Below, in pieces: positions 7,531 through 10,500 of a stretch of 64,000 nucleotides of DNA (the first letter of the stretch is position 1; each line of letters begins with the position of its first letter). The position numbers were made by a program, and so were the translations under genes. Below the pieces are notes generated by a model. That model worked only from the letters and a program-made list of their open reading frames with translations. It was not told the DNA's origin and did no database searches. Location of the stretch: positions 13,652 through 77,651 of IMG/VR virus record IMGVR_UViG_3300036820_000015, one strand, 5' to 3'. This DNA is from a virus.

Positions 7531-10500
7531 GTGCAGGCGCTCCCGATCAGGCTGAGGAAAGACGGTCCCTCTCAGTCAGATGTCCACACCGACGGTCCCG
7601 GCACCATCGGCCCCGTCTGCACCTTCTCTCCCGGCCCTGGCTTCAAGACGTGTCCGAAGTGTGGTGGCGACCCGAGCACGCACATGGCGCCCCCGAGTAT
7701 TGCTCAGCTGGAGAAGGACAGAGCAGTCGCTCAGCCCCTCCGTTGCCCGAAGTGTGGGAGCACAGATACCGGCCTCCTCCCTCCCGACTTCGAGACACTG
7801 AAGTGCCATGCGTGTGAGAGGAATTCTCCTTTCATCAAAGCGGCTATCTCTGTCGCTGGCCTCTGCGTCAAAGCTATTGACACCGGCCGCGTCCTACTCA
7901 TCGAGCGAGGAGTTGACCCCAATGACCCAGCCTCCGAATGTTTCGAGTTCCCCGGCGGCCACCTCAACCCCGGAGAATCCCCCGCTGACGCAGCACTCCG
8001 CGAGTGGGCCGAAGAGGTCGGCGTCCATCCTCCACCCGGTTACTTCCTCTCAACTTGGACCCATGGGATCTATCGAGGCTTCATTTATCTCACTGCTACC
8101 GAGACCATTTCACCCGAGCACTGGCACGCTCACAGCAATCCCGACAATCCTGACGGGGATGTAGTCGAGAGTGCGATGTGGGTCGATCCGCGCGCTGCGC
8201 GGAGTTTCACTGATCTACGCGCTGAGCTAAAGGGGGACACTGCTCTCTGGGACCAGATTGAACGAGCCGGGACACCGTATGCATTACTCCCCATCTCGCT
8301 CTACAAGGAGGCTGCTGGCCACCCCTTTCGCGGCAACCAGTACACCGGTGGTGTCGCCTCCGCCCAGATGGGCTCCAACTCCGAACTCGAACGACACGCT
8401 CACGCCTACTCCAACTCCATCGGCCTTTCGCGCCCCACCGACATCGATTACTCCAAAGTGAAAGTCGACACGCCCACGGCCAAGTCCATCGCGCGCGCCT
8501 ATGACGCTCTCCCCAAACGCGATCCCGAGGCCTCTCCCGCCTTCGCCCAGATGGCCAAGGAGATCGAGCAGCAGTACGCCTATCTGACCGGGCCCATGGG
8601 CATCAAGGTTGATGTAACGCGCGAAGACCCTTACGCCACGGTCCAGGAGATGCAGCACGATGTCACGCAGAACCACCACATCTCGGTGCTCTCGACTGCC
8701 CTCACCGGTCATCACCCCTACTTCACCGACGAGCAGAACGATCACTTCCGGGCCGTCCACGACACCTTCGGACATGCAGCCACCGGTCGTGGTTTCGACC
8801 GCCATGGCGAGGAGGCAGCCTGGCTATCCCATTCTCTGATGTTCTCTCCCCTGGCGCGTCGCGCTATGACCACTGAGACACGCGGCCAGAACTCCGTGCT
8901 CACCCAAGAGCGTCACGGCTTCCCCGAGCAGAAGGTGGCACTGCTGCCGGACAAGTTCTCTACCATCCCTAACTCAATCATCCGCAAGATGATGAGGAAA
9001 GCATTAGTGGCGCAGTCGACTCTGCGGCACTGTATTGCTGGGCGCGCTCAGTTGGACCGGATGCAGTGGCAGCCACCATTCGCCAAAGGATTCTTCCCAT
9101 TCCTCAAGTTGGGTAATGTCACTTGGGACGAACAGAAACACCCGCGCGGCCAGCCCACCAACGCTGGAGAGTTCGCATCAGACCCCGGTGGTGGGAGTAA
9201 GAAGCCAAAGGGGATTGGCAGAAAGACTATGGGCTCAGCCACTCCCGTCACCGACGATGATGTCCCCGGCGACAACATTCAGAACCATGAGGGCACAGCC
9301 ACTCTCAACGAGGCTATGCAGGATCAGGAGGCTAAAGCTGGAGGTTCGGGACAGGCTAAAGCTCAGGTGGCCCATCTGGTGTCGGCCGATATGGTGGATA
9401 ACTGGGGGGACAGGTTCGATGCCAACTTTATGAGGTCTCGGAGCATCAGCCCGGAAGACCTGAAGATTCCAGGGGCACTCGTTGTGAAGAACCTCAACGA
9501 CGGCTCGGTGAACGTCTGGAAGCCAAGTAAGCACACGGGTGGGATTGGCTCCTTTTCGATAAGTTTCAATGAGCGCAAGCAAGCTGTCCCGGCCAACTCC
9601 CCCGAAGCCCTCACCGCTATCCGCGAAGGCGGAGTCTCCTCCCTCATCTCCCTCTGGGCCGGTTCCTCCAACGACTCCTCCGACAAGTCCCTGGCCATCC
9701 AAGACGCCGCCATCGCTGAGTTCGGACTCAAGAACACCTCCGAGTGGACCGAGTACCGTAACCCTGACTCCGTCAAAGAGGAGTTCGACAAGAACGGTGA
9801 CATGTACCGAGCCTTCCTCCGCTCCCAGTACAACGTCACCCAGAAGGACCTGGCTGCACGCGGCGTCACTACCGTCATGTTGGAGCGCGGCGTCAAAGAC
9901 GACCCTGAGACCAACGACGCTGAGGACAATGGTGATGGCACGGCCACGGTCAAGATGCGGCCACTCTCCTCCTGGTCAGTCAACCCCGACACTGCTGAGA
10001 ACTCCTTTGGCAGTGGGGGGACGACGTATCGCGCTGAGTTTCCGGCCAACCGGATTCTTTCCACCACCCTGACCGGATTTGGCTGCCTGGGTGAGAGTGA
10101 GGTGGTGCCGCTGGGGGATCAGGAGACGGTGGGTCTCGTGGGTGGGCAGTGGAATGGTGAGAGTCAGTCCTCTATCAATGAGGAGTGGGCATCTAATGGG
10201 CCGCAACAGGAGTGGGCTGACAACATCACCGAGGGATCTGATGAGACCTATAGCGAGGATGATCTCAGCAGTATGTGGGCTGAAGAGATGGAGTCGCAGA
10301 ACTCTGATGCCGTTGCCGCTTGGCTCTCAGGCCAGGACGATATAGAGAATCTCACTACCAAACAGGAATGGGCTGAGAGCTATACCTCCGACTATGACGC
10401 AGCCTCAGCTGAAGGCCCTGTCACTTCGGAGGAGCTTGATGACGGTTGGACTGGCCATGTTGACGATGAGAACGTCGACACTCTGAACCAGTTCCTTGGC

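Follow-up and report, generated by a model that had tools for sequence, protein, structure and literature searches.

Why does a large protein encoded in the head gene module of a phage open with a near-copy of the first residues of that phage's own major capsid protein (MCP)? The question is raised by a stretch of 64,000 nucleotides of the IMG/VR virus record IMGVR_UViG_3300036820_000015 (hereafter the window, meaning the whole stretch of DNA that was analysed), part of a 77.6-kb phage contig with 61% G+C whose nearest cultured relatives, judged by the MCP, are siphophages of Arthrobacter and Microbacterium (45-52% identity). A 1159-residue protein with several enzymatic domains starts VQALPIRLRK-DGPSQSDVHTD-GPG..., and the MCP starts M-PQPSQSDVHVD-AIM... 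We conclude that the shared peptide is a functional short linear motif and no coincidence. Whether it also serves as a signal for incorporation into, or retention in, the head by mimicking the N-terminal arm (N-arm) of the MCP is a question on which we are evenly divided. We favour this retention reading because the match lies far above chance, the arm tip is conserved, and the peptide recurs on other head proteins, shows signs of selection and of bias towards the cognate MCP, co-occurs with one capsid type and is preceded by a lysine.

The first-pass annotation of this DNA had placed the two peptides at the positions given in Table 1 and had reported identity at 8 of 9 residues with five differing codons, all of which we reproduced: the copy and the MCP arm tip share 8/9 residues and 19/27 bases, and the codons differ at five of the eight identical residues. 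In a six-frame translation of the whole window, 1.2e-4 matches at 8 of 9 positions are expected by chance; two were observed, the MCP itself and the copy, and no other site reached 6/9. The copy scored 21.0 on a position matrix made from the N-termini of 29 MCPs, whereas unrelated background did not exceed about 16 over about 1.6 Mb of related loci; the contig has no second site but this one. Chance was considered as an explanation of the match and is unneeded for the data. The DNA upstream of the copy and that upstream of the MCP site showed no similarity to each other, and a recent DNA duplication, including the ribosome-binding region, was ruled out, since the similarity is confined to the motif. 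The differing codons had been taken as a sign that the match is maintained at the protein level; the differences themselves hold, but the argument is weak alone, since a foreign MCP donor would also give differing codons.

The template of the copy belongs to a gpE-like capsid family with the HK97 fold. The MCP matches phrog_1005 (E 4e-98 over residues 3-319) and, in Foldseek, the structure 3BJQ (2e-18) as well as phage capsids and encapsulins; the Pfam family Phage_cap_E matches it below its cut-off. In 43 + 120 IMG/VR relatives the N-terminus reads MPQP[TS]xxxVHVDAxLTNxSVAY, and in an alignment of 40 MCPs M1, P4 and H10 are invariant and P2, Q3, V9, V11 and D12 are at least 90% conserved. The segment MPQP[TS]xxxVHVD is among the most conserved parts of the gpE-like MCP family, so that the copied peptide corresponds to a conserved N-arm tip. 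The arm itself (residues 1-21) is flexible in the AlphaFold2 model of the monomer, with a predicted local distance difference test score (pLDDT) of 39-50, and the only solved structure in the MCP family, 3BJQ, is a non-assembled crystal. Two MCP lineages, L014 and L016, carry a short N-terminal extension, ..PYRK-S[SE]-P[ST]Q..VH, in the same register. The MCP of phage KPP23 has been N-terminally sequenced; the paper prints no sequence.

A matrix made from the MCP tips was scanned over all fetched related loci, and copies were found on several other kinds of head protein. In locus L019 a 733-residue fusion of a 2H/LigT phosphoesterase, a Mu-I-type protease and a scaffold carries one N-terminally (MPQPGPSAVHTD), the fusion starting MPQPGPSAVHTDSVI and the MCP of the same locus MPQPTPGNVHVDRVI. 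The fusion gene lies at 1865-4066 of that locus, and its LigT domain may be a packaged enzyme acting on cyclic or 2',5'-linked nucleotides. In 22 distinct loci the XkdF-type protease has the copy in its C-terminal tail, about 20 residues after the catalytic-serine motif GYSIGG, in the form ..EK|NDPTVSDVH[VI]DTIM followed by a polybasic segment; these tails end ...GYSIGGKAERLFVDIDLEK-NDPTVSDVH[VI]DTIM-SPSKKKPKK.., with the variants SSPSVNSVHVDTIM or SDPSVNSVHVDTIA, and the MCPs of these loci begin MPQP[NS]INSVHVDAIL. In L008 and L166 the copy stands in the linker before the protease domain (..VEK-GQPTVAAVHVG.. or ..VDK-GQPTLGQVHQP..), and the MCPs begin M[SP]QPTLNQVHVD. Polyvalent proteins with GNAT, DUF5872 and DUF6321 domains (L158, P0013-P0019, L171-L214) have it at domain junctions, as ..KVKK-DNPTVNSVHVA-SVMGSKKRRKKK.. 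and variants, at positions that range from residue 40 to residue 788 among these proteins. The histidine is the only residue invariant across all bearers, and the aspartate is often alanine, proline or glycine in the polyvalent proteins. All the bearers other than the MCP must be, or plausibly are, inside the procapsid. A DNA pattern for the form MPQPxxxxVHTD retrieved from IMG/VR only L019 and two MCPs. In loci of the L094 type and of the L158/L171 type there is seemingly one bearer per genome, either the protease or the polyvalent protein. A polybasic run (KKKPKK, KKRRKKK) follows the peptide in relatives; the window lacks it, and a basic RLRK precedes the motif instead.

The copy in the 22 protease tails allowed us to compare codon differences inside and outside the motif. 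The ratio of amino-acid-changing to silent differences was 422/813 within the motif; the linker before it gave 1524/764 and the basic tail 1105/829. These counts are pairwise on related sequences and descriptive only. By this measure purifying selection acts more strongly on the protease-tail copy than on the sequence on either side of it. The first-pass annotation had called the peptide a portable tag, and this fits the relatives, where a selected, portable motif is found on procapsid-internal proteins; selection in place was seen only in their protease tails. Because no relatives of the window protein were found in IMG/VR or among 5.8e9 proteins, co-variation with the MCP was examined on the other bearers only. 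At the four variable positions between the proline and VH, 28 residues are identical to those of the cognate MCP, where about 14.5 would be expected with MCP types drawn at random, and permutation gave p < 5e-5 over 15 non-independent sites and about 0.001 with one site each from six lineages; the register of L019 was shifted in this count, its true value being 1/4, so that the totals are one lower. The copy of L206 is identical to its own MCP at 9/9 residues. Such a bias towards the cognate MCP, as far as the sequences tell, could come from co-evolution or from repeated local copying, which the comparison does not distinguish.

In another reading the window peptide would be a neutral relic of recombination: the mosaic assembly of the polyvalent gene would have captured the 5' end of a gene for an MCP, possibly the extended one of another phage. 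The start ..LRK-DG-PSQSDVH does resemble the extended MCP start of L014 (..YRK-SS-PSQGDVH), a foreign donor would explain the codon differences, and the N-terminal segment has no relatives in which selection could be shown; yet the same peptide is kept in place on many other proteins that are not MCPs, the window copy matches its cognate MCP at 4/4 variable positions, as do only 1.3% of 80 MCP types, and the flanking DNA shows no similarity. We therefore regard a relic as the least probable of the explanations considered, and a highly improbable one.

The distribution of the copy follows the type of capsid. Among 79 loci with DUF6321-type proteins, 11 hold an MCP of the phrog_1005 type, and the copy is present in ten of these (eight found by the matrix, L174 and L179 with VHTA), the eleventh being cut by the contig end. 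Among the other 68 loci only L214 has a copy, on a contig that stops short of the MCP position; none of the 67 loci that lack this MCP type and show the gene neighbourhood has one. Among DUF6321/DUF5872 proteins the copy is thus confined to phages whose MCP is of this type. In most of the other loci the DUF6321 domain immediately follows a prohead protease, at its conserved C-terminal strand (..ELSLVDNPAN..). In L186, Pfam found DUF6321 and DUF5872 and, slightly below the curated cut-off, a weak Peptidase_S78 match, and in the two loci that were Pfam-scanned, L186 and L221, the next large gene is an MCP of the HK97 type (PF05065). The comparison of the DUF6321 loci therefore places the same cargo domains on a protease fusion in one group and together with a capsid-like peptide in the other; in the group without this MCP type, such cargo appears to enter the head by protease fusion. 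Across L182-L249 the fusion of protease and DUF6321 often runs over a ..P[LI]K-DPKGG junction (for example L186 9479-11278 and L221 2827-4815). This arrangement suggests that DUF6321 and DUF5872, domains of unknown function, are packaged in the head as cargo.

A further regularity lies just upstream of the motif. The tripeptide [VLIY]-x-K stands before the two residues that precede the motif proline in 17 of 20 internal contexts, as in LRK-DG (window), LEK-ND, VKK-DN, VSK-DS and VDK-GQ, the exceptions being L117/L095, L134 and L005. Its lysine occupies the position of the MCP initiator methionine. The HK97 capsid protein gp5 reads TFNK|SLGSD at its known cut (F-N-K|S, K103|S104), with the mature protein beginning at S104. 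A cut after Lys10 of the window protein would thus expose a capsid-like N-terminus in the register of the MCP, and the proposal of the first-pass annotation that cleavage at LRK|DG does so gains independent support from the recurrence of hydrophobic-x-Lys directly upstream of the other copies.

The same lysine could, however, point to processing alone. The motif would then be a recognition element on the P' side of the prohead protease site, shared by MCP, protease and cargo as substrates or pseudo-substrates, and no docking would be involved. The position of the copies at polyprotein junctions and linkers behind [VLIY]-x-K, the two MCP lineages whose extension ends in YRK right before the motif, and the closeness of the protease copy to the catalytic serine are all compatible with this, and in phage 80alpha the capsid and scaffold share an N-terminal cleavage motif with L27 that is cut by the host Prp (PMC5744158). 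Against it, most MCPs have the motif right behind the initiator methionine, with nothing to remove, and still conserve it strongly; the other hydrophobic-x-Lys sites listed earlier for the 1159-residue protein have no VH motif, so that cutting there, if any, would be independent of the motif. In the AlphaFold2 model of the L094-type protease the tail is disordered (pLDDT about 30) and not docked at the active site, a weak argument against recognition, as the tail is simply disordered. On balance we consider processing without docking rather unlikely, though it is the main rival of the retention reading.

Retention by N-arm mimicry would most probably proceed in three steps. A tagged protein would first enter the assembling head. 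The prohead protease would then cut after Lys10 and give DGPSQSDVHTD..., in the same register as the MCP without its methionine, PQPSQSDVHVD... The peptide would finally fill, on the scaffold or on an adjacent MCP, the site that normally receives an arm tip of the MCP, and the cargo would thereby be loaded, or retained until ejection. The marked proteins would travel inside the procapsid: in the window a NUDIX/ART polyvalent effector, and in relatives the protease, a protease-scaffold fusion or other polyvalent proteins. In phage P22 the MCP N-arm is the region that contacts the scaffold, and a prohead protease needs its tail for incorporation. Contacts between scaffold and MCP N-arm are documented in 80alpha (PMC5744158), and T4 and P1 have short terminal capsid-targeting sequences on injected proteins (PMC9024508). 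One could go further and see in the arm tip a programmable loading address, used by phages with this capsid type, in which the N-terminus exposed by the cut after the lysine fills vacant sockets, for example at the portal vertex with its missing penton, so that effectors, proteases or polybasic peptides would sit by the exit channel in a small, fixed copy number and the tag could be moved to arbitrary cargo; this extension is doubtful, and we offer it tentatively.

Several observations weigh against the retention reading. The MCPs of divergent clades begin 1-6 residues before the proline, so that a fixed register of the free end is not universal. No binding partner was found for the peptide, and the segments bearing the motif are predicted to be disordered in the AlphaFold2 models of both the L094-type protease and the MCP. 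The N-terminal segment of the window protein has no homologue in any of the searches, so that the signs of selection come from relatives. Most relatives are without a copy, including all the cultured ones checked (Ottawa, Kovu, ValentiniPuff and KPP23), and the L019 bearer already holds a scaffold domain and so needs no tag for entry. Moreover, the main clade of protease tails (PTVSDVH) mismatches its own MCP (PNINSVH) at the variable positions. Co-variation with the cognate capsid N-terminus, which the first-pass annotation had named as a check, is therefore seen as a bias across the other bearers and fails in this clade; exact mimicry is then not required, and the conserved core appears to be enough.

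A conserved core could also be a handle for a third party, such as a chaperone, a modifying enzyme or a regulatory partner, that acts on the MCP and on a few head proteins. The invariance of the histidine alone, with the aspartate so often replaced in polyvalent proteins, would suit such a partner, and the authors of the 80alpha work discuss a shared chaperone or regulatory role for the scaffold N-terminus (PMC5744158). No candidate partner gene co-occurs with the motif, however, and the motif tracks the MCP type, specifically on head-internal proteins, which makes a third party improbable, if marginally less so than a relic.

The bearer of the peptide in the window, a post-portal protein, is itself built of several parts. 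Its zinc knuckles at residues 41-95 are followed by a NUDIX domain at residues 117-225 (7879-8205, Pfam 2.9e-15), by a phrog_3170 domain at residues 288-478 (8392-8964, 5e-50) and by an ART-like R-S-E domain at residues 707-862 (9649-10116), assigned from the R/S-x-S/E-x-E pattern with no family match. The last of these aligns to the C-terminal ART-like domain of a 1574-residue post-portal protein of L005 (E 2e-10). With several unrelated enzymatic domains and a place in the head module among MuF, protease and scaffold genes, the protein is a polyvalent protein. Neither the whole protein nor its first 110 residues had relatives in IMG/VR or among 5.8e9 proteins at near or shorter lengths, and in the phage collection the phrog_3170 domain was the only part matched. 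From the position of the gene and the type of its domains we infer that the 1159-residue protein is packaged in the head.

Table 1. Features of the head gene module and of the copied peptide (positions in the window).
Feature	Start	End	Strand	Remarks
MuF-like head morphogenesis protein	1664	2746	+	phrog_3517, 2.5e-21
Polyvalent (multi-enzyme) head-module protein, 1159 aa	7531	11010	+	one open frame, GTG 7531 start
10-residue leader VQALPIRLRK	7531	7560	+	ends hydrophobic-x-Lys (L-R-K, 7552-7560), putative prohead-protease cut site
Copy of the MCP N-arm tip, DGPSQSDVHTD	7561	7593	+	residues 11-21; PSQSDVHTD is residues 13-21 (7567-7593)
Prohead protease protein, 690 aa	11745	13817	+	XkdF/S78_2 domain at residues 559-686 (13419-13802); intein-like insert upstream
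Scaffold-like protein, phrog_13547	13939	14907	+	C-terminus homologous to scaffold ends of the L019 and L005 protease-scaffold fusions
Small head protein, phrog_673-like	14911	15396	+	probably decoration protein
Major capsid protein (MCP), gpE-like, phrog_1005, HK97 fold	16123	17082	+	TTG start behind AAGGAG
MCP N-arm tip PQPSQSDVHVD (template)	16126	16158	+	residues 4-12, PSQSDVHVD, at 16132-16158

The genes of the head module run in the order MuF, small genes, the 1159-residue protein, the 690-residue protease protein, the scaffold-like protein, the phrog_673-like protein, a minus-strand HNH gene and the MCP. No canonical start other than GTG 7531 precedes the first CPKC zinc knuckle of the polyvalent protein, and the frame is supported by third-position G+C. 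Immediately upstream lies a 76-residue open reading frame (ORF, 7291-7521) with a zinc-ribbon-like motif, C-x-H-x2-C...LSIYN...C-x2-H, and no family match; it is in frame with the polyvalent gene, separated from it only by the TAG at 7519-7521 and three codons. Read-through from this ORF was considered and is unneeded, and the frames of the MCP, protease, scaffold and polyvalent protein hold no in-frame TAG. A 486-residue ORF at 5512-6972, with its G+C highest at codon position 2 and no family match, is probably not a true frame.

The prohead protease of the window has no copy of the motif. Its intein-like insert spans about 12150-13020, from CLAAETLV... to ...GILTGNS, with a middle that looks of low complexity. 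The family of the scaffold-like protein has a conserved N-terminal strand, ..I-E-E-T-S-G-V-D-H-P-A-H.., which resembles the C-terminal ..E-L-S-L-V-D-N-P-A-N.. strand of HK97-type S78 proteases, and to judge by such likeness the scaffold gene may descend from a protease-scaffold fusion. In phage KPP23 the protein in the position of the small head protein (KPP23_086) is a virion protein. Between the genes of the small head protein and the MCP lies a free-standing HNH endonuclease gene (phrog_1271, E 1.6e-13; 15417-16079, minus strand) in a gap of about 720 nucleotides, the two flanking genes being adjacent in the closest relative, L004; the plus-strand ORF opposite it (15402-16121) looks non-coding.

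How does the motif compare with known ways of addressing proteins to a capsid? T4-type capsid-targeting sequences (CTS) suffice to load a foreign protein and bind the scaffolding core. To our knowledge, neither the T4 nor the P1 signal copies the N-terminus of the MCP, whereas the present tag is the capsid arm tip and, unlike those signals, is found at N-terminal, internal and C-terminal positions. The CTS of T4 and the signal of P1 DarB are short peptides on head-packaged proteins that are delivered, portable between unrelated cargo (PMC9024508); the motif is likewise short and portable, on proteins that are probably packaged, and in the window it stands, as in a T4-type CTS, near the N-terminus of a head-module protein. 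The T4 CTS is removed by the prohead protease (PMC9024508) by a cut after the tag, whereas our candidate site, [VLIY]-x-K, lies before the motif. In 80alpha, as here, the capsid and another head protein share a conserved peptide (10-14 residues in 80alpha), which is also found on non-homologous proteins of other phages (PMC5744158), but that peptide is L27-like and cut at FF|A by the host Prp, and P[ST]xxxVH[VIT]D has no F|A. The enzyme and the model protein of 80alpha belong to the host; in the present group the proteases are the phages' own, of XkdF or Mu-I type, and most MCPs have nothing upstream to remove.

Duda, Oh and Hendrix are said to have described in 2013 a C-terminal targeting tail of the HK97 prohead protease. 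In HK97, as with the C-terminal tail of the herpesvirus protease-scaffold, a flexible tail brings the protease into the procapsid, and the copy of our relatives stands in just such a tail; the tails of HK97 and the herpesviruses attach to the delta domain or the MCP floor, and neither is similar to an MCP N-terminus. The cargo-loading peptides of encapsulins are likewise short, disordered, portable and terminal, and serve an HK97-fold shell, where they bind a pocket on the inner face of the shell protein, but they are not copies of a shell segment, and the present case concerns heads of tailed phages with portal, scaffold and protease. Finally, the window protein resembles the phage polyvalent proteins as a multi-domain head-module protein (zinc ribbon, NUDIX, ART-like) encoded next to MuF, with GNAT, DUF5872 and DUF6321 domains in relatives. 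Iyer et al. reportedly described the architectures of polyvalent proteins in 2017, with no MCP-like junction or loading peptide among them. The motif differs from the T4 CTS, the DarB signal, the HK97 tail, the 80alpha motif and the encapsulin tags in being a copy of the capsid arm, independent of position and coupled to an upstream lysine, and a limited literature search found no paper describing it.

The choice of cargo for packaging in the head and injection is known for a few models only (T4, P1, P22). The motif is a sequence-defined candidate address for a large group of siphophages, most of them uncultured. It is linked to one capsid family and sits on anti-host effectors (NUDIX, ART, GNAT, 2H phosphoesterase, DUF6321) and on the maturation protease; with its help, the sequence could be used to predict which effectors are packaged. 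Should mimicry of the capsid arm prove true, it would be a new principle of cargo loading for HK97-fold shells, and a possible handle for phage-head protein carriers.

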